Assembly: GCA_964651435.1 (NCBI GenBank)
Contig: CAZYVU010000004.1
Location: 49,660-113,659, forward strand
Origin: an uncultured Pseudomonadota bacterium
Lineage (GTDB): Bacteria > Desulfobacterota > Syntrophorhabdia > Syntrophorhabdales > CAYQXL01
Reading direction: 5' to 3'
Length of the DNA: 64,000 nucleotides
The notes beneath the pieces are model-generated. The model was not told the origin of the DNA and did no database searches. It saw only the letters and a program-made list of their open reading frames with translations. Positions 570 to 56,094 of this stretch are shown piece by piece; within the stretch, counting starts at the first letter, position 1; the number at the start of each line of letters is the position of its first letter. The position numbers and the translations under genes are program-made.

Positions 570-1556
570 TTACCCCCCGATCCCGTTCATGGGCCGCACG
601 CACTTCCGGGGCTCCCATGGGGTTATCCCGTGTTCCTTTGGTTTGATACGGATAGCGGCCTCAATGAGGCGTAGCAGACCATCATCGTTCATGCCCCCGC
701 GGAGAGGGGTCTTCAGGTCGGTCTCTTCGTCGGAGAAGAGGCATCCCCGCAAACGGCCGCACGAGGTAAGGCGGAGTCTGTTGCATGTTCTGCAGAAATG
801 GTTGCTCAGCGCTCCAATGAAGCCGATTTCTCCTCTGGCCCCCTGAAGCCGGTAACGTCGCGCAGGACCATCAAGAAGGCGGTGGCTTAAGGGATTGACC
901 TCCCCCAGCGATCGAATGCGGTTAAGGATTTCGTCAACGGGAATAAACTTGTCCCGCCCCCAGCCGTTGCCGTTATCCTCACCAAAGGGCATCATCTCGA
1001 TAAAGCGCACGTGGTAGGGCTTGGCGAACGTCAGGCTTGCGAAGTCAACGATCTCGTCGTCATTCACCCCCCTCATGGCGACTACGTTTATCTTGATGGG
1101 ATCAAACCCCAGGGATTCTGCTTCGCCTATCCCTTCCCAGGCACGATCGAAAACATTCCGCCTGGTTATGCTGTGGAACCTGTCCCGCCTCAAGGTATCC
1201 ATGCTGACGTTGATGCGCCGCACGCCGCAGTCCCGCAGGCCACGGGCGAACTCTTTCAGGAGAACGCCGTTGGTGGTCAAGGTTATCTCCTCTATTTCGT
1301 CTATTTCCTGAAGCTTTTGGATGAAGTCGAGGATATCCCTTCTTACCAGGGGCTCCCCGCCCGTCAACCGAATCTTTCGAATACCCTCCCGGACGCATAG
1401 CTTGACAATATGAATCATTTCCTCGTAGGCAAGGACCTCACTGTGGGGCGTAAAGGGTACGCCCTCATCAGGCATGCAATAGATGCATCTGAGGTTACAT
1501 CGGTCGGTTACGGAGAGGCGCAAATAGTTGATCGCCCTGTTATGATTATCTACCAT
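570..1556 (-). CDS. moaA: GTP 3',8-cyclase MoaA (radical SAM, molybdopterin biosynthesis)
   Basis: N-terminal LSVTDRCNLRCIYCMP (CxxxCxxC), a GGEPL segment, and C-terminal second-cluster cysteines (CRTCNRLRLTSCGRLRGC). The 328 aa length fits. Confidence 0.9.
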   Translation of the reverse strand: MVDNHNRAINYLRLSVTDRCNLRCIYCMPDEGVPFTPHSEVLAYEEMIHIVKLCVREGIRKIRLTGGEPLVRRDILDFIQKLQEIDEIEEITLTTNGVLLKEFARGLRDCGVRRINVSMDTLRRDRFHSITRRNVFDRAWEGIGEAESLGFDPIKINVVAMRGVNDDEIVDFASLTFAKPYHVRFIEMMPFGEDNGNGWGRDKFIPVDEILNRIRSLGEVNPLSHRLLDGPARRYRLQGARGEIGFIGALSNHFCRTCNRLRLTSCGRLRGCLFSDEETDLKTPLRGGMNDDGLLRLIEAAIRIKPKEHGITPWEPRKCVRPMNGIGG

Positions 1557-1715
1557 AAACGTCTACTCTTGAAATGCCGTACTTGTCTTTCATTGCTCTG
1601 GCTACGCCTATAGCCATTTTGCAGGACAGTCATGAAGGGTTCCCGCTGTGAAAAACAACCAGCTCTGCCATGTTGGTCTCCTGAATTATTTGGCATTCTT
1701 GCTATAAGCGGCCAT

Positions 1716-2156
1716 TCAGCCGTCCCGCTTCTTTTGAACGATGTAGTTTTCGATGGCCTCCCGCAGGGTATTCGCGGCAAGCAGGGCGCAGTGCCGACTT
1801 TCCTCCGGAAGCCCGCCGATCGCGTCAAGGATCGTCTCGTTGGTGATCTCCCCGGCCTCTTCCAGGCTTTTCCCAAGGGCAAGGCCGGCTGCCAGCGACC
1901 CGCAGACGATGCTCGGCCCACAGCCGTCCGTTTGAAACGAGGCCTCACTCACCGTTCCGTTTTCGAATCTAAGGAATATTTCCATTGTGTCGCCGCAGGG
2001 ACCCGTAATCCGGCTATAACCATCGGGCCTCTCCATGGGCCGCATGTGCAAAGGGTTGCGCCATCGCTCAAAGGCCTTGTGTCCGTAGTCTCGAATTGTG
2101 TCATCGTTAATTTGATCCTGTAGCTCTTGCAAGAAATCATCAAGATTCTCCGACAT
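1716..2156 (-). CDS. IscU/NifU N-terminal-domain-like Fe-S scaffold protein
   Basis: Three scaffold cysteine contexts are present: GPCGD, DGCGPS and RHCALLA. Length is 146 aa. Confidence 0.7.
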   Translation of the reverse strand: MSENLDDFLQELQDQINDDTIRDYGHKAFERWRNPLHMRPMERPDGYSRITGPCGDTMEIFLRFENGTVSEASFQTDGCGPSIVCGSLAAGLALGKSLEEAGEITNETILDAIGGLPEESRHCALLAANTLREAIENYIVQKKRDG

Positions 2157-2203: not shown

Positions 2204-3067
2204 CTATGGCTTGGGCCCCAGGTTTGAAGCCAACACATTCGTTTCCGGAGCGAATCCTGCCTGCGATGCTACCACAGAGCATTTGACCCTGAAGAGGAAA
2301 ACAATTTTTTTCCTTGTATCACTTAAGGTTTCGTAGTTGCCTTGCCCTTTTGCTATTATGAGGTCCGCGTCGCTAAAGCACCTCCTGAATTCAGGACTGC
2401 ATTCGCTCACTATGGTGCCCGGCGCGTCAGAGCCGTTATCAATTACTTTTGCGATGTCATGGAGGCCTGCCGCATAGGCGTCAGCCATCGTGGCATCGTT
2501 GATGACCGGTTTTCCCCTGACGGCAACCGTCACCCTTTCCGCGGGAAGCTCCTCAACAAGAAGGCGGTCAAAGAATATCTCACCCGCATTATCGGTGAGG
2601 TACAGAATGTTGGTAGCCCCTTGCATCGCCAGGCGAAGGCCTTCGATATCTCCGCGAAATGGCCCTGAAAGGGCCTCGGCAACGCCGCGAAGGACGGCAT
2701 CCTCCGTCATTCCGCTCTTGGCGCCGCAGTCAATCACGTTTCCCGTTATTCCAAGATGGACGGCCGTCCTAAAACGGTCCCGGCTTTCATAAACCTTCTT
2801 TCTCAGTTCGGGCAGCAATCCCCGGGCAAGGCGGTTGAACCGCTCTTTAACTTCTCTGTATGGATCATCGTTTCCCGTCAGCTCCCGTATCCCGCGGTGC
2901 ATCCACTGGCCTGCAACGGGTGGCGGTTGATCGAAATCAAGTCCTGCCAGATAACGAAGTACATCGCGAAACACCTCTACGCGGACCGACGGATGGGCCG
3001 GGACATAGCGTATCGCTTCCAGCGCTTGCCTCGCCAAACAGGGAATACAATCGATCGTGGATTTCAC
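2204..3067 (-). CDS. DUF89 (ARMT1-like damage-control phosphatase) family protein
   Basis: The N-terminal CIPC motif and the overall pattern (..DNAGEIFFD.., ..AKGQGNYE..) resemble DUF89. GTG start lies downstream of AAGGAAGAAG. Confidence 0.65.
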   Translation of the reverse strand: MKSTIDCIPCLARQALEAIRYVPAHPSVRVEVFRDVLRYLAGLDFDQPPPVAGQWMHRGIRELTGNDDPYREVKERFNRLARGLLPELRKKVYESRDRFRTAVHLGITGNVIDCGAKSGMTEDAVLRGVAEALSGPFRGDIEGLRLAMQGATNILYLTDNAGEIFFDRLLVEELPAERVTVAVRGKPVINDATMADAYAAGLHDIAKVIDNGSDAPGTIVSECSPEFRRCFSDADLIIAKGQGNYETLSDTRKKIVFLFRVKCSVVASQAGFAPETNVLASNLGPKP

Positions 3068-3089: not shown

Positions 3090-3105
3090 AGCAATTAGCA
3101 TGCCA
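3090..3105 (-). promoter_or_regulatory. sigma-54 (-24/-12) promoter facing the DUF89 gene
   Basis: The reverse complement reads TGGCAT-GCTAA-TTGCT, with exact GG-N10-GC spacing. The -12 C is at 3091 and the GTG start at 3067, which predicts a leader of about 12 nt. Confidence 0.6.
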
Positions 3106-3211
3106 AAGCTTCTTTGCAGAACGATCACGAGACAACCTCATAACATGCCTGGCTATTCTTTCCCGGAACAACAACGTCGAGGTCCATATGCCCTCGGCTC
3201 TTCCACACATT

Positions 3212-3226
3212 CTTGCACTATGCAAG
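3212..3226. promoter_or_regulatory. inverted repeat CTTGCA-cta-TGCAAG, candidate enhancer (UAS) for the 3090-3105 promoter
   Basis: Perfect 6-bp arms with a 3-bp spacer. It lies about 110-120 bp upstream (minus-strand sense) of the -24 element, just after the activator gene stop. Confidence 0.35.
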
Positions 3227-3227
3227 G

Positions 3228-4625
3228 CTATCTGCGAAGCCCCCGCCCGTCGCGTGCGGGGGCTTCGATTTTCAGGTCTTTGATCTTCCTGTAAAGGGTG
3301 CTTGTGTCGAGGCCCAACTCTCGCGCCGTCACTGCCCTGTTGCCGCCGCAGCGTCGCAAGGTCTCTGCTATAAGGGTTTTCTCCATAGCCTTCAGGTTCA
3401 TGGGGCCTGCTCCTCCGGCCGAAGACGATACAGGGGGGCGTAATTCTGGGGGGAGGTGGTGAAGCTCTATGATCTCCCCACGGCACAGGACGAAAGCCTG
3501 CTCGATAATGTTCTCCAACTCCCGTATATTGCCGGGAAAGTCGTATTCCATAAGTTGCGTCATGACCTCAAAGGAAATCCCCGCAATGGTCTTTCCCTGG
3601 AGCCGGTTATATTTTCCCATGATGTGGTCGACCAGCAACGGTATATCTTCACGCCGCGCTTTGAGACTCGGCAGAACAAGGCGGATAACGCGAATCCGGT
3701 AGTACAAATCTTCCCGGAACCTTCCCTCCTCGACAAGCCGCAAAAGATTCCTGTTTGTGGCGGCCACAACACGCACATCTACCCTAACGGGCTCCACGGA
3801 TCCGAGCGGTTCTACCGTGCGCTCCTGCAGCACACGAAGCAAACGCACCTGAAGAGCCGGAGATATATCACCTATCTCATCAAGAAACAGCGTCCCACCT
3901 TCCGCAAGGACAAAGCGGCCCACCTTGTCCCGCTTGGCGTCCGTAAATGCCCCGGCTTTGTAGCCGAAAAACTCACTTTCCAGAAGGGTGTCGGGCAGTG
4001 CGGCACAGTTTACTGCAACGAACCGTTTCTTTCTGCGCGGCGAGAGGTTATGTATAGCCCGGGCGAAAAGCTCCTTGCCCGTACCGCTGGGACCCTCGAT
4101 CAGCACCGTGCTGCTGCTCTCGGCGATAGGCGGGAGCATCTCAAACAGACGTATCATCGAGGGACTCCTTCCCACGATGTCTTCAAAGGTGTGGCGGCTC
4201 TCCAATTCCTTTCGCAGCTCTTCTACCTGACTCAGGTCCTGAAAGGTTTCAACCCCGCCAATCACGTTGCCATCGTCACCTTTTAGGATTGCCGTCGAAA
4301 TGCGAACAGGCACACGCAATCCCTTATTGTTAACGATAAAAGCGGTGGCATTCACGACGGGCTTTGCCGTTTCGAAGGTACGTCTCAAGGCACAGTTCTT
4401 TTCGCATATATTCGCATGGAACACCGCGGAACATGGACGCCCCATCGCCTCTTCCCGAGAAACACCGGTAATGCGCTCTGCCGCACGGTTGAAGGAAGTA
4501 ATATGCCAATCGAGATTTATTGTGAAAACACCCTCGTTAATCGAGTCGAGAATAACCTCCCGCTCCTCCGCTCCCGTTCCGTAGCGGCTAAGGGCTCTAC
4601 CATTTTTCATATCCTTATCGTTCAT
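3228..4625 (-). CDS. sigma-54-dependent transcriptional activator (PAS sensor, AAA+ domain, Fis-type HTH; no receiver domain)
   Basis: PAS-like N-terminus (ILDSINEGVFTINLDWHITSFNRAAERITG). Walker A GPSGTGKE, GAFTGA-type loop (GAFTDA), Walker B LFLDEIG. C-terminal HTH ..AARELGLDTSTLYRKIK. Confidence 0.9.
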   Translation of the reverse strand: MNDKDMKNGRALSRYGTGAEEREVILDSINEGVFTINLDWHITSFNRAAERITGVSREEAMGRPCSAVFHANICEKNCALRRTFETAKPVVNATAFIVNNKGLRVPVRISTAILKGDDGNVIGGVETFQDLSQVEELRKELESRHTFEDIVGRSPSMIRLFEMLPPIAESSSTVLIEGPSGTGKELFARAIHNLSPRRKKRFVAVNCAALPDTLLESEFFGYKAGAFTDAKRDKVGRFVLAEGGTLFLDEIGDISPALQVRLLRVLQERTVEPLGSVEPVRVDVRVVAATNRNLLRLVEEGRFREDLYYRIRVIRLVLPSLKARREDIPLLVDHIMGKYNRLQGKTIAGISFEVMTQLMEYDFPGNIRELENIIEQAFVLCRGEIIELHHLPPELRPPVSSSAGGAGPMNLKAMEKTLIAETLRRCGGNRAVTARELGLDTSTLYRKIKDLKIEAPARDGRGLRR

Positions 4626-4660
4626 ATTGCAATAGTATGGTACCTATAGTATTGCAATAT
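4624..4660. promoter_or_regulatory. 37-bp near-palindrome containing two ATTGCAAT boxes, candidate activator-binding site (UAS/operator)
   Basis: ATATTGCAATAGTAT-GGTACCT-ATAGTATTGCAATAT, with 15 of 18 symmetric pairs matching. It starts inside the activator start codon and is centred about 100 bp upstream of the 4740-4755 promoter. Confidence 0.45.
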
Positions 4661-4739
4661 GCGGCACAAATGTCAATGTAACCCTGCCCACCGCCGTGCA
4701 ACATATTGGTATCGCTGTTGTTTATATGTCTTTTCTTCA

Positions 4740-4755
4740 CGGCACAAAAGTTGCG
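4740..4755 (+). promoter_or_regulatory. sigma-54 (-24/-12) promoter facing the NifX-like/DUF5320 gene set
   Basis: CGGCAC-AAAAG-TTGCG, with invariant GG and GC at the correct spacing. ATG 4771 is 16 nt after the -12 C, so the leader would be very short. Confidence 0.5.
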
Positions 4756-4770
4756 TTGCATGTCGATATC

Positions 4771-5187
4771 ATGGTGATAGCAATAGCAAACTTCCAGGGT
4801 TCCGTATCGCCGGTCTTTGACGTGTCCGATAAGCTCTCTCTCGTAGAGGTCGTCGGCGGAAAGGAAGTGCAGCGAAAAGACGTGCTATTGATGGAAAGAG
4901 ACCCATTCCTGAGGGCTAAGGAAATGACCGCTATCAGCGTCGAGGTGCTGCTCTGCGGGGCCGTCTCGTACGCCATGGAGACGGCCCTGATTACCGCCGG
5001 TATCAGCGTTGTAGGATTTCTGTGCGGCGGTCTTGAGATGATACTTGGCGCTTTTCTGAAGGAGGGACTGACGGACAGCCGCTTTCTCATGCCCGGATGC
5101 GTCGGGGGCAGGCGACGACGTCGGTTTCGCTGTAGTCACGGAAGACAGGAAGCCCCTATGCGGGGCGGGCCAAACAAAAGGAGGTGA
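4771..5187 (+). CDS. NifB/NifX (dinitrogenase FeMo-cofactor-binding domain)-like protein with Arg-rich tail
   Basis: From the internal ATG the protein reads MVIAIANFQGSVSPVFD..LLCGAVSYAMETALITAGISVVGF..ILGAFLKEGL, the alternating pattern of NifX-like carriers. The tail is GGRRRRRFRC. Confidence 0.6.
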   Translation: MVIAIANFQGSVSPVFDVSDKLSLVEVVGGKEVQRKDVLLMERDPFLRAKEMTAISVEVLLCGAVSYAMETALITAGISVVGFLCGGLEMILGAFLKEGLTDSRFLMPGCVGGRRRRRFRCSHGRQEAPMRGGPNKRR

Positions 5188-5192
5188 GGAAC

Positions 5193-5597
5193 ATGCCAGG
5201 TGGAGATGGAACAGGGCCTCGTGGATTTGGACCCATGACCGGACGGGCGGCAGGATTCTGTACAGGTTTTCCCGTTTCCGGGTATGCAAATTTCGCTCAG
5301 GGAAGAGGGTTTCGTACCTGGGGCGGCCCTGGTGGAGCCGGCGGCCGTGGCTTCAGAAAATGGTTCCGCAGAACCGGACTGACAGGGCGGCAAAGAGCCG
5401 GAGGCTTTATGCCGGCCTGGGACAATCCCTTTACTTACGGTGCGCCCCAGCACACCCCTGCAGCGCCCGCTGTAACAAGGGAACAGGAGTTGGCTGCACT
5501 GAAGGCTCAGGCGGAATACCTGGAAGACGCCCTCGATGGCGTCCGCAGGCAGCTCAAGGACCTGGAGGCCCAGGGAATGGCGCCTCAGGCAGGTTGA
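5193..5597 (+). CDS. DUF5320 family protein
   Basis: MPGGDGTGPRGFGPMTGRAAGFCTG N-terminus, a Gly/Arg-rich middle, and a C-terminal coiled-coil-like REQELAALKAQAEYLEDALDGVRRQLKDLE. AGGAGG lies 7 nt upstream. Confidence 0.7.
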   Translation: MPGGDGTGPRGFGPMTGRAAGFCTGFPVSGYANFAQGRGFRTWGGPGGAGGRGFRKWFRRTGLTGRQRAGGFMPAWDNPFTYGAPQHTPAAPAVTREQELAALKAQAEYLEDALDGVRRQLKDLEAQGMAPQAG

Positions 5598-5678: not shown

Positions 5679-6323
5679 ATGCGTATTGCCGTTACAGCGG
5701 AAGGACCATCTCTTGACGTCGCAATTGATCAGAGGTTTGGGCGATGCCCTTTCTTTCTCATCGTCAATACCGGGGACCTCACTTTTGAGGCTATCCCGAA
5801 CGGAAGCGCTTCTCAGCGGGGAGGTGCGGGTATCCAGGCCGCTCAAATGATCGTCGGCAAAGGGGTGACGCACGTCTTCACAGGTGCCTGCGGGCCCAAT
5901 GCTTACCAGGTCCTCGCGGCGGCCGGGGTCCAGGTTATAGTCGGCTGCACCGGCACGGTACAAGACGTCATCAGACAATGTCGGGAGGGAAGGTTTGTGG
6001 CAGCCGCAGAGCCCAATGTAAGGGACCACTACGGCGTCGGCCAACCCTTGTCGGGTCAGGCAGGCACCCCTATGGGAATCCCCGGCGGGTTTACGACAGG
6101 CATGGGGATGGGCAGAGGAATGGGCCGCGGCAAGGGCAGAGGAATGGGGGTGGTCCGCGGTATCGGTACAGACCCGAACGTTAGTGTCGGGCAAGCACCG
6201 GGAGCGCCGGTCCAGCCCAAGAATGCTCAGCAAGAGCTGGAGTTGCTAAAGAAGCAGATGCAGGACATTAAGAACCGCATCGACGAGCTCGAGCAAACTG
6301 CGCCCGCTAAGAATCGGGGTTGA
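5679..6323 (+). CDS. NifB/NifX-like domain fused to a DUF5320-like Gly/Arg-rich coiled-coil tail
   Basis: N-terminal half MRIAVTAEG..IDQRFGRCPFFLIV..GVTHVFTGACGPNAYQVLAAAGVQV matches NifX-like domains. C-terminal half is GMGMGRGMGRGKGRGMG..QQELELLKKQMQDIKNRIDELE. Confidence 0.7.
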   Translation: MRIAVTAEGPSLDVAIDQRFGRCPFFLIVNTGDLTFEAIPNGSASQRGGAGIQAAQMIVGKGVTHVFTGACGPNAYQVLAAAGVQVIVGCTGTVQDVIRQCREGRFVAAAEPNVRDHYGVGQPLSGQAGTPMGIPGGFTTGMGMGRGMGRGKGRGMGVVRGIGTDPNVSVGQAPGAPVQPKNAQQELELLKKQMQDIKNRIDELEQTAPAKNRG

Positions 6324-6392: not shown

Positions 6393-7415
6393 ATGGAAAT
6401 GGGTATTTTTGCCATAATAGTTGATTATCTCCAGCGAGGCTCCGGCGGTATCCTTGCAACGGTGATACAACGAACCGGTTCGGCACCGCGCGATGTGGGG
6501 GCGAAAATGTTCATCGCTGCCGATGGCACCATGTTTGGGACTGTAGGAGGCGGCCGTCTTGAGTCCGACGCCTACAACAAGGCGCTGGAAATAATGAACA
6601 AAGGGATTACGGCCCTGCTGAGCGTCAATATGGAAGCAATGAATGTAGAGGATGCAGACATGCTCTGCGGCGGCAACGTGTACGTTCTCTTGGAGCCGGT
6701 AACAACAGGCAGTCTTGAGCTCTATAGCGCCATAAGGCATTGCCGGGAAAGAAGGGAGGCAGGTGTGCTCCTGACAAGGTTCGGCGACCATGGGTTTGCC
6801 AAAACCTTGCTGTGCGAAAACGGAACCACGGTTGGTGATTTCCCTGACTACGGGACGGGCAAAACCGACTTCTTTTCCTTCGACTTGCCCGCACTGGCAG
6901 ACTCCGGGGACCTCTTTGTTGAACCAATCCGCGCTATCAGTCCCCTTTACATTTTTGGTGCAGGCCACATATCGCAGCATCTGTCCCGAATGGCCAAAGC
7001 CGTCGGTTTTTACGTGACCGTCATCGACGACAGGAGGGAATTTGCCAATACGGAGAGGTTCAGCGATACCGACAGCATTATCGTGGGGGAATTTGCGGAC
7101 ACCTTTTGTGCTCTCGAGTTCACGGGCCACGAATACGTGGTCATCTGTACGAGAAGTCATGAGTACGATGCCCTTGTCCTGGAAAACGCACTGAAGAAAG
7201 AAACAAAATATATCGGAATGATTGGGAGCGCGCGAAAGGTGCGAATCATCATGGACCGCATGCACGCAAAAGGCTACGACCAGAGGATCACGGCGGGGGT
7301 GCGCGCCCCGATAGGGATCCCCATCAATGCGGAAACCCCCCAGGAAATAGCGGTAAGTATTGTAGCGCAACTGATACAAGTGAAAAACGCGCAGTCTCGC
7401 GGCAGCGGGACTTAA
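6393..7415 (+). CDS. XdhC/CoxI-family cofactor-insertion accessory protein
   Basis: N-terminal XdhC-type segment (ATVIQRTGSAPRDVGAKMFI..GTVGGGRLE) plus a Rossmann-like half (LYIFGAGHISQHLSRMAKAVGFYVTVIDDR..IGMIGS). Confidence 0.8.
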   Translation: MEMGIFAIIVDYLQRGSGGILATVIQRTGSAPRDVGAKMFIAADGTMFGTVGGGRLESDAYNKALEIMNKGITALLSVNMEAMNVEDADMLCGGNVYVLLEPVTTGSLELYSAIRHCRERREAGVLLTRFGDHGFAKTLLCENGTTVGDFPDYGTGKTDFFSFDLPALADSGDLFVEPIRAISPLYIFGAGHISQHLSRMAKAVGFYVTVIDDRREFANTERFSDTDSIIVGEFADTFCALEFTGHEYVVICTRSHEYDALVLENALKKETKYIGMIGSARKVRIIMDRMHAKGYDQRITAGVRAPIGIPINAETPQEIAVSIVAQLIQVKNAQSRGSGT

Positions 7416-7427
7416 AAGAATTTAGTG

Positions 7428-7478
7428 TTAGGGCGTGGGTTTCTCGGTTTCCGTCGGTGCCGAGGCTATGCCCTAACG
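7428..7478 (+). other. nested stem-loop abutting the ribosome-binding site of the radical SAM gene
   Basis: Outer stem GTTAGGGC/GCCCTAAC and inner stem CTCGG/CCGAG. GGGGTGA and ATG 7490 follow directly. Confidence 0.3.
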
Positions 7479-7489
7479 GGGTGATCCTT

Positions 7490-8263
7490 ATGAAGAGAAG
7501 CTTCATGTATATTTACGGGCCCGTTTCATCCTGGAGAATGGGCAGCTCTCTTGGTATCGATCTCTTGTCGCAGCCGGAAAAAATCTGCTCTTTTGACTGC
7601 ACCTATTGCCAGCTCGGAAGGACCTGCAACGGTGAGACAAAGAGGAAGATCTGCGTTCCTGTTGAAGACATGTTGGAGGAAATTCGGTCGTTACCTGAGA
7701 TTTCCGTCGACTGCTTTACCTTTTCCGGAAGAGGAGAACCAACACTGGCAGCAAACCTTGGCGACGCGATCAGGGCCCTCAGGCAGGCCAGGTCCGAGCG
7801 AATCGCCGTCATTACAAACTCATCGCTATTGCAACAGGATGATGTCCAAAATGACCTCTTGCAGGCCGACCTCGTTATTGCCAAACTCGATGCGCCGTCG
7901 CAAGATGTATTTGAGGCCATCAACAGGCCTTGTTCCGGTTGCGACTTCCCGGGCCTTCTTGCGGCCCTTGTAGATTTCAGGGGCCGTTTTTCCGGCACGC
8001 TTGCTTTACAAATCATGTTTACGGCACAGAATAGGGGCTACGCGTCCGAGATAGCGCACATTGCCCGGATCATCGCGCCGGACGAGGTGCACATCAATAC
8101 ACCGCTAAGACCTTGCGCCGTCCACCCCCTCGGAAGAGAGGAGCTCTCTCGTATCACGGCCTTCTTCGCCGGGCTTAATGCCCTTTCCGTCTACGAAAGC
8201 AGCAAGAAATTCGTCGAGCCCATGAGCGACGACGACACACTACGAAGAAGGGGAAAGGTTTAG
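7490..8263 (+). CDS. radical SAM protein (COG0731/Tyw1-like bacterial family, function unknown)
   Basis: YGPVSSWRMGSSLGIDL followed by CSFDCTYCQLG (CxxxCxxC), then GRGEPTL. Start moved to the ATG preceded by GGGGTGA. Confidence 0.75.
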   Translation: MKRSFMYIYGPVSSWRMGSSLGIDLLSQPEKICSFDCTYCQLGRTCNGETKRKICVPVEDMLEEIRSLPEISVDCFTFSGRGEPTLAANLGDAIRALRQARSERIAVITNSSLLQQDDVQNDLLQADLVIAKLDAPSQDVFEAINRPCSGCDFPGLLAALVDFRGRFSGTLALQIMFTAQNRGYASEIAHIARIIAPDEVHINTPLRPCAVHPLGREELSRITAFFAGLNALSVYESSKKFVEPMSDDDTLRRRGKV

Positions 8264-8265
8264 GG

Positions 8266-8976
8266 ATGGAGATTAAGATCCTCTTCGACAACAGAAGGCT
8301 GAATCGCACGTTCATAGCAGGGTGGGGATTGTCATATCTTGTTGACGACCGGATCCTCTTTGACACAGGCGAGAGCGCAGGACCCCTTTTCTACAACATG
8401 GACCGCATGGGCGTCAGTATCGAGCAGATCCAGTCAGTCGTCATTTCCCATGAACATTTTGACCATACCGGCGGCCTCTGGAACATCCTTAAGGAAAGGC
8501 CGGGCATCAATGTCTATGTATGTCCGGATTTCAGCGCGCCATTCAAGGAAGAGGCGGCATCGTATACCTGTAACGTAATAGAGGCTCACCATATGACCCC
8601 GATTGCCGAGCGCATACAGGCAACGGGTCAGTTACGCAGCGGCACCCATTCGGACGGTATCGCAGAGCAGTCCTTGGTACTTTGTACGGAGCTGGGCCTG
8701 ACAATGCTGACGGGCTGCGCACATGTCGGCATAGTAGACATGGTGGAGCAGGTAACAATGGTGACGGGAAAGAAATCCTATCTTGTCATGGGCGGTTTTC
8801 ACCTCCTCGGCGAACCCGAGACCATGGTACAGGCTGTCGGCAGAAGACTGCACGAGCTTGGCGTACAATACATCGGGCCGGCCCACTGCACCGGCACCGA
8901 ACCAATGCGAATCCTAAAGGGGTCGTACGGACAACGTTTCATCGATGTCCTCGTAGGCGAGACAATAAAGGTTTGA
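8266..8976 (+). CDS. MBL-fold metallo-hydrolase superfamily protein (COG1237-like)
   Basis: ISHEHFDHTGG metal motif and later GCAHVG and GGFHL motifs. Starts 2 nt after the radical SAM stop. Confidence 0.7.
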   Translation: MEIKILFDNRRLNRTFIAGWGLSYLVDDRILFDTGESAGPLFYNMDRMGVSIEQIQSVVISHEHFDHTGGLWNILKERPGINVYVCPDFSAPFKEEAASYTCNVIEAHHMTPIAERIQATGQLRSGTHSDGIAEQSLVLCTELGLTMLTGCAHVGIVDMVEQVTMVTGKKSYLVMGGFHLLGEPETMVQAVGRRLHELGVQYIGPAHCTGTEPMRILKGSYGQRFIDVLVGETIKV

Positions 8977-9028
8977 TGCCGCTAAAAGTGTTCTTTGCAT
9001 CGTTGCGTGGTCCAGGCTAAGGGGTGCC

Positions 9029-9778
9029 ATGGCTGTTGGGACATTACCGCTGATTATCGGGGCCACCCTGGTGGGGAGTGTGGCCACCCTGGTGGGGGCA
9101 TCTTTCGTGCTCCTCTGCTCCAAGGGGAGAAGCCGGATCTTTATTCCTTTTCTTGTAAGTTATGCCACCGGAACGCTTCTCGGGGCAGCCTTTTTGGGCA
9201 TGATACCGAAGGCACTGAAAGTTTCCTCAACAACCACAGTCTCCGCTACCATACTGGCCGGCACTCTCCTCTTCTTCCTGCTTGAGAAGTCCGTCATCTG
9301 GCGCCACTGCCACGAAGACAACTGCGACATTCACACGAGGGCAGGCACTCTCATTATTTTTGGCGATGCTTTTCACAACTTTGTTGACGGCATCGTTATC
9401 GCCGTGGCCTTTATGGCCGACAGGTCATTTGGGGCCGCGACCACCGTAGCCGTTCTCGCCCATGAAATTCCGCAGGAAATGGGAGATTTTGCGATCCTCA
9501 TTGAAAGCGGCTACCCTCGGGCGAAGGCATTTCTTTACAACTTCCTATCCCAGGCAACCTCTCTGCTGGGTGCGGTCGCCGCCTACTTCTATCTCCAGGC
9601 CGCCGAGGCCGCTATTCCATACGTCCTCTCCATGTCAGCGGCAAGCTTCATCTACATCGCCCTGGCGGACCTCATCCCCGGGCTCCATCGAACAATAGAA
9701 CTGAAAAACAGTTTTATTCAGTTAGTGCTGCTCCTGTCGGGAATCGGGACGATAGCCCTTTTCGTTGCCTCTCCTTAA
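9029..9778 (+). CDS. ZIP-family divalent metal permease (ZupT-like)
   Basis: Multi-pass membrane protein with the signature HEIPQEMGDFAIL and HNFVDG. Confidence 0.8.
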   Translation: MAVGTLPLIIGATLVGSVATLVGASFVLLCSKGRSRIFIPFLVSYATGTLLGAAFLGMIPKALKVSSTTTVSATILAGTLLFFLLEKSVIWRHCHEDNCDIHTRAGTLIIFGDAFHNFVDGIVIAVAFMADRSFGAATTVAVLAHEIPQEMGDFAILIESGYPRAKAFLYNFLSQATSLLGAVAAYFYLQAAEAAIPYVLSMSAASFIYIALADLIPGLHRTIELKNSFIQLVLLLSGIGTIALFVASP

Positions 9779-16204: not shown

Positions 16205-16501
16205 ATGTCAAGACCAAAGAAATGCAGATGTGTCGATTGTAGCCCTCACGTATTTTATTTTAAACCCAAGGGGATTCCCTTGGTCAATCTCTTTGAGATT
16301 TCCCTTGAGATAGACGAGCTTGAGGCATTGAGGCTGGCCGACTACGAGGGCCTGTACCACGAAGAGGCATCGAAGAGAATGAACATATCAAGGGCTACTT
16401 TTGGCCGCGTTTTGTGCAGCGCCCGCCATAAGGTCGTGGAGGCCATACTGGAGGGCAAGGCCTTGAAGATTGAAAACCAACAAGCTGGAGGTCACATATG
16501 A
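16205..16501 (+). CDS. DUF134 (UPF0251) family putative DNA-binding protein
   Basis: MSRPKKCRCV..FKPKGIPL N-terminus and a sigma-70 region-4-like HTH (EEASKRMNISRATFGRVL). Confidence 0.8.
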   Translation: MSRPKKCRCVDCSPHVFYFKPKGIPLVNLFEISLEIDELEALRLADYEGLYHEEASKRMNISRATFGRVLCSARHKVVEAILEGKALKIENQQAGGHI

Positions 16502-20632: not shown

Positions 20633-21715
20633 TTAGAACCCTAATACTTTGTGGCACCTGCGACAGCTTTCCGGTGGAGCCGGAAGCGGACGCACCCCTG
20701 ATACCTTCAGCTCCATAAGGGCATCAATGGTATCGCGCCGACATCTTCCCCTCTCTTCAAAGCTGCGCCGAAAGGCAACATATTCCGGCCTTCCCCAGAT
20801 CGCATCCCACTCTTCCCGAAAAAGATTGCCGAAGCTGACCTTCTCCTCCGGAAATGTGTGGCCGCAAAAGATGCGGGAAAAGGGCGAATGCACCGGCGGC
20901 TGCAGGTAGACACAAGGCGACACCTCGCCCTGGACGGAGACGTAGACGTTTTCAAGGGGGTTCTCACTGCACACGGCAACGTCCGTCGGGGCGAGGGCGG
21001 GAAGGGTCAGCCTTACCCGCAACCTGCGTGCCCTGCCTGCGGCCTCAGCCATCACCTCGCCGTAGGGGTTCACGTCACCGCAGGAAAAGACCCTTTGTTC
21101 ATCCTGCCAGGCCGTTGCCACGTGGGCATTGGTGATGACGATCACCTCTCCGATACCGAGGCCGTATGCCACGTCGACGACCTGCGGCAGCTCGGCCATG
21201 TTTTCTTTCAGGGCGAGATAGACTATGTGGACCTTCGGCCCCCTGGACCTGCGGGACCGCACTATACCCACGAAGGCCCTGATGCTCTCCTGCAGCCGGT
21301 CAAAATCAGAGCGGACACGAATGCGGTTGTGGGTTTGGGCGGTGCAGCCGGCGAGAGAAAACCCGATGAAGTCAATGCCCCCGTCTATCAATGCCCTGGA
21401 CCGCTCCTCGCTCAGCCCATAGCCGCTTGTGACAAAGCCGACCTCAGGCCCCTGAGCCTTGACCGAACGGACAAAATCGATGAGCCGGGGGTGCATAAGC
21501 GATTCACCCCACCCTTCAAGGACGACGCTTTTCACCGACCTCAGCCAGGGGGAGATCCGATCGAAGTCCCGAAGGGCCATATCCCGTCGCAGCCATTGCG
21601 CATCGGCCTCCTTGACGCACATGCGGCAGGCAAGAGGGCATCGGGTCGTTACTTCTATCTGCCACGCGTTGAACGTCGGCCCGATCCGGTTGCTGCGCCG
21701 CGAAAAAATACCCAT
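20633..21715 (-). CDS. radical SAM protein with SPASM/twitch-like Cys-rich C-terminus
   Basis: EVTTRCPLACRMC (CxxxCxxC) and C-terminal cysteines (SPCVY..FCGH..GRCRR..ESCRRCHKVLGF). Start set at MGIFSRR, 7 nt after the upstream stop. Confidence 0.75.
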   Translation of the reverse strand: MGIFSRRSNRIGPTFNAWQIEVTTRCPLACRMCVKEADAQWLRRDMALRDFDRISPWLRSVKSVVLEGWGESLMHPRLIDFVRSVKAQGPEVGFVTSGYGLSEERSRALIDGGIDFIGFSLAGCTAQTHNRIRVRSDFDRLQESIRAFVGIVRSRRSRGPKVHIVYLALKENMAELPQVVDVAYGLGIGEVIVITNAHVATAWQDEQRVFSCGDVNPYGEVMAEAAGRARRLRVRLTLPALAPTDVAVCSENPLENVYVSVQGEVSPCVYLQPPVHSPFSRIFCGHTFPEEKVSFGNLFREEWDAIWGRPEYVAFRRSFEERGRCRRDTIDALMELKVSGVRPLPAPPESCRRCHKVLGF

Positions 21716-34185: not shown

Positions 34186-35607
34186 GTGAGAAGCAGAATC
34201 ATCATTAGTCTTGTCATTGGCGCCATCTGGTTTGGTTTTGCCGGGTTCAAACTTAAGCACTACTATCTGCCCCCGGCTGAGGCCACCTATGTGTCCCAGG
34301 CCTACAGGGAGAAGGTGGGCGTGAACGAGTACAATTACGGTATCTACATGAGGGACACGCGCATAGGCCACATGAAGCGCATGCTCGTGCCCACGGACAA
34401 AGGCGTGAAGATTTTCGAGGAAGGCATTATGCGGATGAGCTTTCTCGGAGAAAAGAAAGAGCTTCGCATGAACCTTTACAGCGATCTCGACAAGGATTTT
34501 CGTCTCATTGCCTTCGTTCTGCAGGTCCTTTCCGATACGGAAGACCTGACGATCCGCGGCGAGATGGCGGGCAACACCCTTGTGGTTTCCGCCATCACCA
34601 AGGACGGAAAAACGGCCCATTCCATTCCCATGACAGAGAGGCCCCTTATCCCGTCGGCCATCGTTCCCTTTCTCGTCAAGTCGGGGTACGGCGGCAAAAC
34701 AAGCCTGAGGCTTCCCGTCTTTGACCCTTCGATCCTGGGCCGGTACGACGCCGAGGTTGTGCTCGTCGGTTGGGAGAGGATAACCGTTGACAATGAGGAG
34801 GTACGGGCCTTTCACGCCAAGACCCTTTTCAAGGGCATCGAGCTCCACGCCTGGATCGACGAGTCGGGAGGCATCGTCAAAGAAGTGAGCCCCATCGGAA
34901 TCGTCGTGCAAAAGGAGCGGCCGGGCAGGGAGGCAGACTACCTCGACGTCAACCTTCTGGCCTCGGTGGAGACGACAGGATCAGTCACCGACCCCCGGAA
35001 CGCGTCCTACATGAAGGCCGAGCTGACCGGTTCAGAGGACCTCCTCAAGGTGGTGGGCCGATATCAGCGGCTTACGGGGAACGCCTTCGAGATCGAGCGC
35101 GGGCAGCTCCCGCAGGTTTCCCTTGACCCCTCGTCGCACCTGGCGCCAACGCCTTTCATCAATAGCGACGATACGGCCATACGGGCGGCCATCCCCAAGA
35201 TCGTGGCATCGAAGACAAGGCCGGTGGACAAGGCCGGCGCGCTGATGAACTGGGTGCACGCCAACATGCGAAAGGCACCCGCCTTTTCTGTGCCCGTGGC
35301 CTCCGACGTGTTCAGAAAGCGCGTCGGCGACTGCAACGAGCATGCCGTCCTCTTCGCCGCCATGGCACGGGCCGCCGGGATACCCTGTGCCATCGCCTCC
35401 GGCATGGTCTTCAACGACGGTCACTTCTACTACCACGCCTGGAACATCATATTCGTCGACGGTAGGTGGACGGACGTCGATGCCACCTTCGGCCAGCTTC
35501 CCGCCGATGCCACCCACGTAATCTTGGCCCTCGGCGACATAACGGAGGGCATCGAGGTGCTGCAGTTTGTCCGGAAATCGGCCGTCCGCATCGTGGAGGC
35601 CCGGTGA
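34186..35607 (+). CDS. membrane-anchored transglutaminase-like (cysteine protease fold) protein
   Basis: N-terminal TM segment. C-terminal core has the Cys-His-Asp contexts VGDCNEHAVLFAAMARAAGIP, YYHAWN and TDVDAT. Confidence 0.8.
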   Translation: MRSRIIISLVIGAIWFGFAGFKLKHYYLPPAEATYVSQAYREKVGVNEYNYGIYMRDTRIGHMKRMLVPTDKGVKIFEEGIMRMSFLGEKKELRMNLYSDLDKDFRLIAFVLQVLSDTEDLTIRGEMAGNTLVVSAITKDGKTAHSIPMTERPLIPSAIVPFLVKSGYGGKTSLRLPVFDPSILGRYDAEVVLVGWERITVDNEEVRAFHAKTLFKGIELHAWIDESGGIVKEVSPIGIVVQKERPGREADYLDVNLLASVETTGSVTDPRNASYMKAELTGSEDLLKVVGRYQRLTGNAFEIERGQLPQVSLDPSSHLAPTPFINSDDTAIRAAIPKIVASKTRPVDKAGALMNWVHANMRKAPAFSVPVASDVFRKRVGDCNEHAVLFAAMARAAGIPCAIASGMVFNDGHFYYHAWNIIFVDGRWTDVDATFGQLPADATHVILALGDITEGIEVLQFVRKSAVRIVEAR

Positions 35608-54876: not shown

Positions 54877-55015
54877 CGCCTGTCTTCAGAATTCTTGAGA
54901 AGTGTCAAATACTTAAAAAGTGGCAGAGTGCAACCGCTTTTTCAAGCAAAAGGGATGGGGCAACCGCCCGCCCTGCCGCGTAAGCCCACCGGCAGCGGCT
55001 TTACAACTATTTAAT

Positions 55016-55059: not shown

Positions 55060-56094
55060 ATGAAGACAGCCGATTTCGACTATGATCTACCCAAGGAACT
55101 GATAGCCCAGCATCCGGCAGGAGAGCGGGCGTCGTCGCGATTGCTCGTCCTGCACAGACAGTCAGGGATAAGGGAGCACAGGGCATTCCACGACGTGGCC
55201 TCCTACCTCAGCGCCGGGGACGTCCTCGTTCTTAACGAAAGCAAGGTGCTGCCCGCACGGCTTTTCGGCAGGAAAGCGACGGGCGGCTCCGCAGAGGTCC
55301 TCCTCGTCGAGCAAAGGGGACCAGGCCGCTGGCTTTGCCTTGTAAAGGGCATAAGCCGACGGCAGGAGAGCACAGAGGTCACGTTCGCCACGGGCAAGGC
55401 AACGCTTTTCCCCGGCCCCGATTTTTGGACAATCGTCTTTGCCGACGGCACAGATGGGGAATCGGTAATGGGACGGGAAGGCGCTATGCCCCTTCCTCCC
55501 TACATCAAAAGGGTTCCCCGCGGCGATAATTTATTGGAAGATAGCTCGGATTTCGAGCGCTACCAGACGGTCTACGCGCGCGTGGAGGGCTCCATTGCAG
55601 CCCCGACGGCGGGCTTTCACTTCACCGGTGAACTGCTGGACCTCCTTACCCGTAAGGGCGTCGAGATTGTGAAGATTACGCTGCACATCGGCGTCGGAAC
55701 ATTCTTCCTCGTTAAGTCCGAGGATGTGGTGGAGCATCGCATGCACGCCGAGCGCTTTTCCGTTTCTGCCGAGGCGAAGCATCAGATTCTCCGGGCAAAA
55801 AGCGAGGGAAGGAGGATTGTGGCCTGCGGCACCAGCGCCGTTCGCACCCTCGAAACGTTGGGTTCGGGCAACGGCTCCAGCCCCTTTGCAGGAGAGACGG
55901 GGCTCTTCATCTACCCCGGCTACCGCTTCACCATGGTTGATGCCCTCATAACCAATTTTCACCTTCCCCGGTCGACACCCCTGCTCCTGGCAGCCGCCTT
56001 TGCCGGGCACGAGGCGCTCCTGACAGCCTACCGGGAGGCTGTGGAGAAAGGCTACCGCTTTTACAGCTACGGCGACGGGATGCTCATTCTATGA
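55060..56094 (+). CDS. queA: S-adenosylmethionine:tRNA ribosyltransferase-isomerase
   Basis: MKTADFDYDLPKELIAQHP.. and ..PPYIKR.., ..AAPTAGFHFT... Confidence 0.92.
   Translation: MKTADFDYDLPKELIAQHPAGERASSRLLVLHRQSGIREHRAFHDVASYLSAGDVLVLNESKVLPARLFGRKATGGSAEVLLVEQRGPGRWLCLVKGISRRQESTEVTFATGKATLFPGPDFWTIVFADGTDGESVMGREGAMPLPPYIKRVPRGDNLLEDSSDFERYQTVYARVEGSIAAPTAGFHFTGELLDLLTRKGVEIVKITLHIGVGTFFLVKSEDVVEHRMHAERFSVSAEAKHQILRAKSEGRRIVACGTSAVRTLETLGSGNGSSPFAGETGLFIYPGYRFTMVDALITNFHLPRSTPLLLAAAFAGHEALLTAYREAVEKGYRFYSYGDGMLIL

Follow-up and report, generated by a model that had tools for sequence, protein, structure and literature searches.

The 64,000-nt stretch of an uncultured Syntrophorhabdales genome analysed here (contig CAZYVU010000004.1; hereafter the window) encodes an activator composed of PAS, sigma-54 AAA+ and helix-turn-helix (HTH) domains, whose gene lies between two predicted sigma-54 promoters of the −24/−12 type, and the locus is very probably an OrpR-type module, i.e. 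one activator, two flanking sigma-54 operons and a probable autorepression of the activator gene. This reading takes the locus as an OrpR/orp orthologue at 53% identity, with an aligned cysteine triad, a match to the solved orange protein (ORP) structure 2WFB and a second protein of the same fold. The OrpR/orp system itself is already known, and particular to this lineage are the site sequence, the target genes and the promoter-to-start geometry. A first-pass annotation had marked four motifs around the activator gene, two promoters and two palindromes, and direct reading of the sequence found all four where it had put them. The regulatory features and the activator gene are the following.

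3105-3090, minus strand: predicted sigma-54 (−24/−12) promoter of the DUF89-IscU-moaA cassette, TGGCATGCTAATTGCT, read as TGGCAT-GCTAA-TTGCT
3213-3225, both strands: candidate upstream activating site D, a perfect TTGCA-cta-TGCAA, 114 bp upstream of the DUF89 promoter
3228-4625, minus strand: gene of the PAS / sigma-54 AAA+ / HTH_8 activator, 465 aa (Pfam PAS_9, Sigma54_activat, AAA_lid_14 and HTH_8)
4620-4632, both strands: candidate upstream activating site 1 (distal), GTTCAtatTGCAA, two mismatches, offset −115, overlapping the activator ATG
4652-4664, both strands: candidate upstream activating site 2 (proximal), TTGCAataTGCGG, two mismatches, offset −83
4676-4648, minus strand: putative sigma-70-type promoter of the activator gene, TTGACA (4676-4671), 17 nt, AATACT (to 4648), 10 of 12 consensus bases
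4740-4755, plus strand: predicted sigma-54 (−24/−12) promoter of the orp-like operon, CGGCACAAAAGTTGCG, read as CGGCAC-AAAAG-TTGCG

The activator aligns with OrpR of Desulfovibrio vulgaris

To our knowledge, experimental work on the OrpR circuit has been confined to Desulfovibrio vulgaris. In strain Hildenborough, orpR (DVU2106) lies between two sigma-54 operons (PMC3897727, PMC8359166), its product is listed with a GAFTDA loop (PMC4641369), and C52, C61 and C65 are required for the redox-sensitive [4Fe-4S] cluster of its PAS domain (PMC8359166). The window activator, read from an ATG at 4625-4623 to a TAG stop at 3228-3230, is the product of the sole GAFTGA-type sigma-54 activator gene of the window; its PAS cysteines C65, C74 and C78 form the pattern Cx8Cx3C and its loop reads GAFTDA. 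Searching the metagenome contigs with an exact D. vulgaris orp1 25-mer gave no match, and a D. vulgaris-like contig (L085) was recovered by a degenerate two-box pattern. Its DNA agrees almost base for base with the published D. vulgaris orp1 promoter region. Numbered as in the publications, its activator has C52, D54, C61 and C65, and the genes next to that of the activator encode an ORP-like protein and two CbiA/Fer4 ATPases. With this D. vulgaris-type OrpR the window activator shares 53% identity (E = 1e-158) over the PAS, AAA+ and HTH parts, and C65, C74 and C78 align with its C52, C61 and C65. The exact activator protein is present on three contigs of the collection. The NCBIfam equivalog models of NifA, NtrC, ZraR, PrdR and AtoC were tried and all scored below their cutoffs (340.9 bits versus 528.85 for the NifA model TIGR01817), so the activator is assigned to none of these families; in sequence it stands nearer to OrpR than to other activators of its class.

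Scanning species-representative genomes yielded 80 loci that encode relatives of the activator, and four closer relatives (L081-L084), with activators ~80% identical and Syntrophorhabdaceae-like by their source names, were fetched by exact protein look-up. Relatives of at least ~45% identity form a distinct group with Cx8Cx3C in the PAS domain and mostly a GAFTDA loop; those of 42% identity or less have neither the cysteine triad nor the gene context. The orthologous activator adjoins a homologue of the 138-aa gene that opens the divergent operon in ~35 loci, often followed by a DUF5320 gene and a Nitro_FeMo-Co gene. In the closer relatives (L001-L011, L044) this operon runs divergently from the activator gene; in others it is downstream and co-directional. 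When the divergent intergenic regions of the window and L081-L084 were aligned (alignment A1), two dyads, a GTCAA block, the promoter core GG..A...GTTGC and the ATG stood out as invariant blocks. Such conservation of position and motif in related loci is stronger evidence than counts within the window.

Two predicted sigma-54 promoters occupy both gaps that flank the activator gene

The two predicted promoters fill both intergenic gaps flanking the activator gene. In each, the GG and the GC are exactly 10 bp apart within a TGGCAC-N5-TTGCW context oriented towards the gene, which starts 22 nt further on for DUF89 (GTG at 3067) and 15 nt further on for the NifX-like gene (ATG at 4771). A weight matrix that we approximated from the published −24/−12 consensus was run over both strands (~128,000 positions), a check that the first-pass annotation had proposed, and gave the 3105 site the top score of the window (19.2 bits, the matrix maximum) and the 4740 site rank five (10.9 bits). 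For the core GGCAY-N5-TTGC the window has four matches versus 1.36 expected, with the remaining two (21019 and 35333) inside long open reading frames (ORFs), and TGGCAC-N5-TTGCW with two mismatches allowed shows no excess (25 matches versus 27.7 expected). The two core matches within long ORFs are also good −24/−12 matches by the matrix (minus strand, 35332-35347 at 15.6 bits and 21018-21033 at 13.1 bits); internal sigma-54 sites do exist, and these two, with no dyad upstream, were treated as chance.

The related loci are more telling. On the NifX-like side, ~30 of 34 loci in which the activator gene adjoins the small gene have a −24/−12 element of at least 8.5 bits before the small gene, many of them perfect; GG..A...GTTGC of this promoter is invariant in A1, and relatives carry stronger versions in the same place. 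The promoter on the DUF89 side is kept as TGGCAYGnnAATTGCT in L081 and L082, the latter with the identical 22-nt distance to the DUF89 start, and is also present in L007 and L008. Among the four closer relatives, those that retain part of the cassette, L081 (IscU-MoaA) and L082 (DUF89-IscU), keep the cassette promoter, and L083 and L084 have neither cassette nor promoter. This loss of the promoter together with the cassette is a natural control that supports the link between the two. The initial placement of a PAS/sigma-54 activator between two sigma-54 promoters is thus upheld, with −24/−12 elements that are conserved in position among the relatives.

A 13-bp dyad is shared by both promoters and co-varies with the activator HTH

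In the related loci, the dyad consensus upstream of the promoters is TTGCA-N3-TGCAA (13 bp), and offsets are given here from the dyad centre to the first base of the promoter 16-mer. The perfect dyad of the window (site D) is part of a longer palindrome, CTTGCA-cta-TGCAAG at 3212-3226, directly after the TAG stop of the activator gene. The sequence TTGCANNNTGCAA has its single perfect match of the window at 3213, and at one mismatch or fewer it is found twice versus 1.5 expected, i.e. without window-wide enrichment. A one-mismatch dyad at 54921 was rejected for its wrong geometry, lying downstream of a weak minus-strand −24/−12-like match at 55190.

On the divergent side, the 39-nt near-palindrome CATATTGCAATAGTATGGTACCTATAGTATTGCAATATG (4623-4661) overlaps the activator ATG and contains ATTGCAAT at 4626-4633 and again at 4651-4658. 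The first-pass annotation had taken this box as the unit, which needs redefining: each ATTGCAAT box contains the intact TGCAA/TTGCA half of one 13-bp dyad, and the true site is TTGCA-N3-TGCAA. Defined in this way, sites 1 and 2 are 32 bp apart, and the palindromes that had been described ~100-120 bp upstream of the promoters hold good as one shared dyad, at −83/−115 on the divergent side and −114 on the DUF89 side, with conserved offsets.

In divergent-type loci, two dyads are centred 114-119 and 82-87 nt upstream of the promoter, ~32 bp apart. The distal one recurs at −114 to −119 in L002-L005, L008 and L011, and site 1 falls within a conserved block of A1; the proximal one lies at −82 to −87 in the relatives, and TATTGCAnnATG of site 2 is invariant in A1. 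Just after the activator stop, a dyad is found 116-121 bp from the promoter in L081, L082, L007 and L008, as compared with 114 bp in the window; a second dyad 31-33 bp from the perfect one was looked for on the DUF89 side of five genomes, and nothing credible was found. Counted over the same loci, dyads with at most one mismatch number 13 in 7.4 kb of promoter-upstream DNA versus 14 in the other 294 kb.

Across loci L002-L052, the dyad spacing splits cleanly with the HTH sequence, N3 dyads going with LGI[D/N]xSTL in nine loci and N4 dyads with LG[I/M]H[K/P]STL in nine loci. This co-variation across clades points to the activator as the binding protein, and it is the best available indication, drawn from comparison of the sequences, that the activator would read the dyads. 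The OrpR site of D. vulgaris is a 17-bp imperfect palindrome, GGGCGYRTTTTGCGCCC, i.e. GCGCA-N3-TGCGC (PMC3897727, PMC8359166); its GCA-N3-TGC-core dyad is bound by OrpR in vitro and by chromatin immunoprecipitation sequencing (ChIP-seq) (PMC8359166), and the published promoter sequences place two orp1 boxes 31 bp apart just past the orpR stop.

Two further observations concern palindromes outside the window. The post-stop dyad is kept in L083 (5365-5377) and L084 (5377-5389, perfect), which have no cassette or sigma-54 promoter, and may be a remnant of the lost cassette or have another role. On an unrelated metagenome contig (L086:8360-8410), two perfect GGGCGCATTTTGCGCCC palindromes flank a GC-rich inverted repeat, and no OrpR-like gene was detected in the 9.3 kb covered.

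The proximal dyad lies within a putative sigma-70 promoter of the activator gene

Site 2 fills the spacer of the sigma-70-type promoter predicted for the activator gene. In L081-L084 and L002, too, the proximal dyad sits in the spacer of an equivalent promoter, and A1 shows no variation in the −35 region (GTCAA on the plus strand). Since the proximal dyad lies within the spacer, binding there should repress the activator gene. In D. vulgaris, a site overlapping the sigma-70 promoter of orpR brings about negative feedback on orpR (PMC3897727), and by this precedent and the position of the dyad the autoregulation that the first-pass annotation had thought possible appears plausible as autorepression.

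At the other end of the gene, the last 12 activator codons (3235-3265, minus strand) contain a perfect GC-rich inverted repeat of 11 bp, GAAGCCCCCGC...GCGGGGGCTTC. With the neighbouring dyad hairpin included, the folding energy is −35 kcal/mol (z −4.1); the closest relatives do not conserve the repeat, and no U tract accompanies it on the coding strand. It might act as a barrier to read-through or stabilise the 3′ end of the mRNA.

The divergent promoter may abut the start codon of the first gene

With +1 placed twelve nt past the C of the −12 GC, the transcription starts are predicted at ~4766 and ~3079, which would leave leaders of ~5 nt for the NifX-like gene and ~12 nt for DUF89, the latter like D. 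vulgaris orp2. The same rule applied to D. vulgaris put the boxes within 3-4 nt of their published positions (PMC3897727), which we take as the error of the rule. In 17 loci (the window, L001-L008, L010, L011, L043, L044 and L081-L084), the spacer from the promoter 16-mer to an invariant ATG is 11-15 nt, which leaves no room for a functional Shine-Dalgarno sequence before the first gene. The NifX-like gene of the window has none, and the downstream genes of its operon have strong ones; in co-directional loci, where the operon follows the activator gene, the leaders are mostly 20-60 nt with a Shine-Dalgarno sequence. Indels in the spacer of A1 are not multiples of three, which indicates that the region upstream of the ATG is non-coding. 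On this sequence geometry, the sigma-54 promoter would abut the ATG and the first gene of the orp-like operon would be translated from a leaderless or nearly leaderless mRNA, a proposal for which we put the chances at about even. If true, activator-dependent sigma-54 transcription would be paired with leaderless translation in a conserved manner, and a shallow search of the literature found no description of such a pairing.

The predicted regulon ties orange-protein genes to cofactor genes

The genes on the two sides of the activator are as follows.

570-1556, minus strand: moaA (GTP 3′,8-cyclase), Pfam Radical_SAM and Mob_synth_C, the last gene of the co-directional cassette
1716-2156, minus strand: IscU/NifU_N-like iron-sulfur (Fe-S) scaffold gene, Pfam NifU_N, E = 1.6e-23
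2204-3067, minus strand: gene of the DUF89/ARMT1-like damage-control phosphatase family, GTG start at 3067, Pfam PF01937, E = 1.2e-65
4771-5187, plus strand: small NifX-like gene ('NifXs', 138 aa), ATG at 4771, without a Pfam match
5193-5597, plus strand: DUF5320 protein gene, Pfam PF17253, recurring in related loci
5679-6323, plus strand: ORP homologue with a Nitro_FeMo-Co domain and a DUF5320-like tail (Pfam)
6393-7415, plus strand: XdhC gene (Pfam)
7457-8263, plus strand: radical SAM gene (Pfam)
8266-8976, plus strand: metallo-beta-lactamase (MBL)-fold hydrolase gene (Pfam)
9029-9778, plus strand: ZIP-like transporter gene, named from reading of the translation only

On the divergent side, the 5679-6323 product has ORP 2WFB as its best match among solved structures (E = 1.5e-19). 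The 138-aa protein had been called NifX-like; the name is supported at the profile level, where hhalign against an ORP/NifX domain profile gave 97.8% probability (E = 1.1e-12), but not in Pfam, which gave no match even at E up to 10. Judged from the profile comparison, it is a divergent member of the NifX/Di-Nase (ORP) fold. The genes from 6393 to 9778 are on one strand with intergenic gaps of 2-69 nt and likely form the distal part of the orp-like operon. Elsewhere on the plus strand, 16205-16498 encodes a DUF134-domain homologue with 39% identity to the DUF134-NifX fusion of L083; DUF134 is commonly found with NifX-like/orp-type clusters.

On the co-directional side, MoaA scores 384.9 bits with TIGR02666, exceeding the model cutoff. 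A gap of 159 nt separates the IscU-like gene from moaA, both on the DUF89 strand; in L081 the IscU and MoaA genes overlap. Within the gap (1557-1715, minus strand), a 13-codon ORF at 1671-1630, MAELVVFHSGNPS, with a good Shine-Dalgarno sequence was noted. A molybdenum-cofactor riboswitch or other RNA element was considered for this gap and rejected, as no Rfam family was found: the Rfam scan gave no match at gathering scores anywhere in the window and none at E up to 1 in 1500-1800.

The same genes recur around the activator elsewhere. In L005, L007, L008 and L082 the gene immediately after the orthologous activator is DUF89; an IscU-like gene follows the activator in L081 and L082, in L081 as IscU-MoaA behind the same promoter; and the orp-like operon continues with XdhC and a radical SAM gene in L082 and with XdhC in L083. 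In several phyla, genes of DUF89, IscU, radical SAM and DUF1847 are found repeatedly in the neighbourhood of the orthologous activator, which indicates that the association is not peculiar to this genome. The proposed linkage of DUF89, the IscU-like gene and moaA to the NifX-like operon gains support in this way, from the shared motif and from the recurrence of DUF89 and IscU in OrpR-linked clusters of other phyla. In L007 (5515-5562) and L008 (4188-4235; both approximate), the sigma-54 promoter and DUF89 are separated by an upstream ORF of 15 codons (MKSTPTLNGRGRGNL in L007), the stop of which overlaps the DUF89 start (ATGA); this ORF is absent from the window.

A circuit model and its alternatives

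From these observations we infer a circuit in which the activator gene would be transcribed from the sigma-70 promoter at 4676-4648, and HTH dimers of its product would bind the 13-bp TTGCA-N3-TGCAA dyads, two on the divergent side 32 bp apart and one past the stop. By looping ~110-140 bp of DNA, the AAA+ ring would reach sigma-54 RNA polymerase at both −24/−12 promoters and open them through ATP hydrolysis. The 4740 promoter would then drive the orp-like operon (NifX-like, DUF5320, ORP homologue, XdhC, radical SAM, MBL and ZIP), the 3105 promoter would drive the co-directional DUF89-IscU-moaA, and occupancy of the proximal dyad would repress the sigma-70 promoter of the activator. If the activator works like D. 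vulgaris OrpR, activation may be confined to low redox potential by a [4Fe-4S] cluster bound at the PAS Cx8Cx3C motif.

Several findings weigh against an OrpR-type module with this circuit. No rpoN gene was found within the 64-kb window. The NifX-like promoter is weak, having C in place of T as its first base and G at −11; each of the two divergent-side dyads has two mismatches; and predicted leaders of ~5 and ~12 nt are unusually short. The orp promoters of D. vulgaris require IHF (PMC3897727, PMC8359166), and the IHF-like pattern WATCARNNNNTTR gave one weak match with one mismatch on the divergent side (4711) and none on the DUF89 side. No Orp3/Orp4/MrpORP-type CbiA/ParA-Fer4 ATPase was found in the window, unlike the L081 operon, which carries two. 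The stretch from the activator gene to DUF89 showed no intrinsic terminator. Finally, Ala67 (codon GCG, 4427-4425) replaces a conserved Asp/Glu two residues after the first cluster cysteine; D or E occupies this position (CS[D/E]VFH) in every triad-bearing locus and in all eight close proteins examined, and GAG to GCG is one base change. D/E54 of D. vulgaris OrpR is conserved and has been proposed as a possible fourth 4Fe-4S ligand (PMC8359166), and with Ala67 at this position redox sensing may differ. As for the ATPases, the divergent operon of L081 was seen to end (L081:19-1799) in two CbiA/ParA ATPase genes with ferredoxin domains, which are Orp3/Orp4-like.

Other explanations of the motifs were weighed against the same evidence. 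That they are chance matches in AT-rich intergenic DNA can hardly be credited: neither the two-mismatch promoter pattern nor TTGCANNNTGCAA with up to one mismatch exceeds expectation in the window, but position and sequence are conserved in dozens of genomes of several phyla and the layout agrees with an experimentally defined system, by which the chance reading is effectively refuted. It is very unlikely that the 3212-3226 palindrome is an RNA-level 3′ stem-loop of the activator mRNA and not a DNA enhancer site. Its place directly past the stop and its folding as a 6-bp hairpin beside the much stronger GC-rich one would suit such a role, yet no U tract follows it, the same motif occurs ahead of the divergent promoter, in a region without any 3′ end, its sequence itself is conserved beyond pairing, and its distance to the −24/−12 element is constant.

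If the sigma-54 promoters are real, another transcription factor might bind the dyads, with the activator binding elsewhere or acting from solution, as the degenerate divergent-side dyads and the perfect post-stop dyad of L084, which persists though no sigma-54 promoter follows, would allow. We consider this quite unlikely, given that the dyad position relative to the −24/−12 element is fixed across genomes, the N3/N4 geometry tracks the activator HTH in nine versus nine loci, and D. vulgaris OrpR binds the same GCA-N3-TGC core. It is unlikely, though less so than the preceding alternative, that read-through starting at the sigma-70 promoter of the activator supplies most of the DUF89-IscU-moaA transcript and that 3105-3090 contributes little; without a terminator, such read-through could indeed contribute to cassette expression, and in L005 DUF89 lies 75 nt after the activator gene with a Shine-Dalgarno sequence and no −24/−12 element. 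Against a main role of read-through stand the perfect consensus match of the 3105 site, the best of the window, the retention of such a promoter with a dyad at 114-121 bp in four other genomes and its loss exactly where the cassette is lost; the hairpin at the activator 3′ end could also limit read-through. The OrpR-type module with two sigma-54 operons hence remains the preferred reading.

Significance and comparison with known systems

The module is a predictable orthologue of a known system, and as such a solid, if only moderately surprising, finding. It indicates that the OrpR wiring, with two sigma-54 promoters, paired dyads and a site at the activator's own promoter, reaches Syntrophorhabdaceae-like bacteria and metagenome-assembled genomes labelled as several other phyla. 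The comparison yields a testable motif, TTGCA-N3-TGCAA, and a rule that relates the HTH to the dyad spacing (N3 or N4). The predicted regulon ties orange-protein genes to moaA, XdhC, IscU-like and DUF89 genes (molybdenum cofactor and Fe-S) and to a ZIP transporter, which points to metal-cofactor handling, away from the cell-division role assigned to Orp; and Ala67 offers a naturally occurring variant of the residue proposed as fourth ligand of the sensor cluster.

The locus shares with OrpR/orp of D. vulgaris the PAS / AAA+ / HTH architecture with Cx8Cx3C and GAFTDA; an activator gene flanked by a divergent sigma-54 promoter and by a second one immediately past its stop codon (both predicted here); palindromes with a GCA-N3-TGC core, paired 31-32 bp apart and ~90-140 bp upstream of the start; a binding site, predicted here, over the activator's sigma-70 promoter; and an ORP (Di-Nase domain) gene among the targets. 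It differs in the outer half-site bases (TTGCA/TGCAA here versus GCGCA/TGCGC), in the co-directional target (DUF89-IscU-moaA with a single box versus orp7-8-9 with two boxes) and in the divergent operon, which has XdhC, radical SAM, MBL and ZIP genes and is without the Orp3/Orp4/MrpORP ATPases of D. vulgaris. The predicted leaders are ~5 and ~12 nt versus ~24 and ~12 nt for D. vulgaris in the same geometry, Ala67 stands in place of Asp54, and no convincing IHF site was seen here, whereas D. vulgaris needs IHF.

At the enteric glnAp2/glnAp1, NtrC uses paired dyads ~100-140 bp upstream of a −24/−12 promoter, and the same sites repress an overlapping sigma-70 promoter. The window locus is alike in its paired upstream dyads for a −24/−12 promoter that overlap a sigma-70 promoter; however, NtrC is a phosphorylated response regulator that recognizes TGCACC-N5-GGTGCA, whereas the activator here would be a one-component PAS sensor with Fe-S cysteines and other targets. 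With NifA/NifX regulons the locus has in common that sigma-54 promoters with upstream enhancer sites drive, here by prediction, genes of the NifX/NifB fold (Nitro_FeMo-Co). It departs from them in that the activator stays below the TIGR01817 cutoff, its N-terminal Pfam domain is PAS and not GAF, its site is not TGT-N10-ACA, and the Di-Nase proteins are ORP-type, with no nitrogenase genes seen in the examined part of the window.

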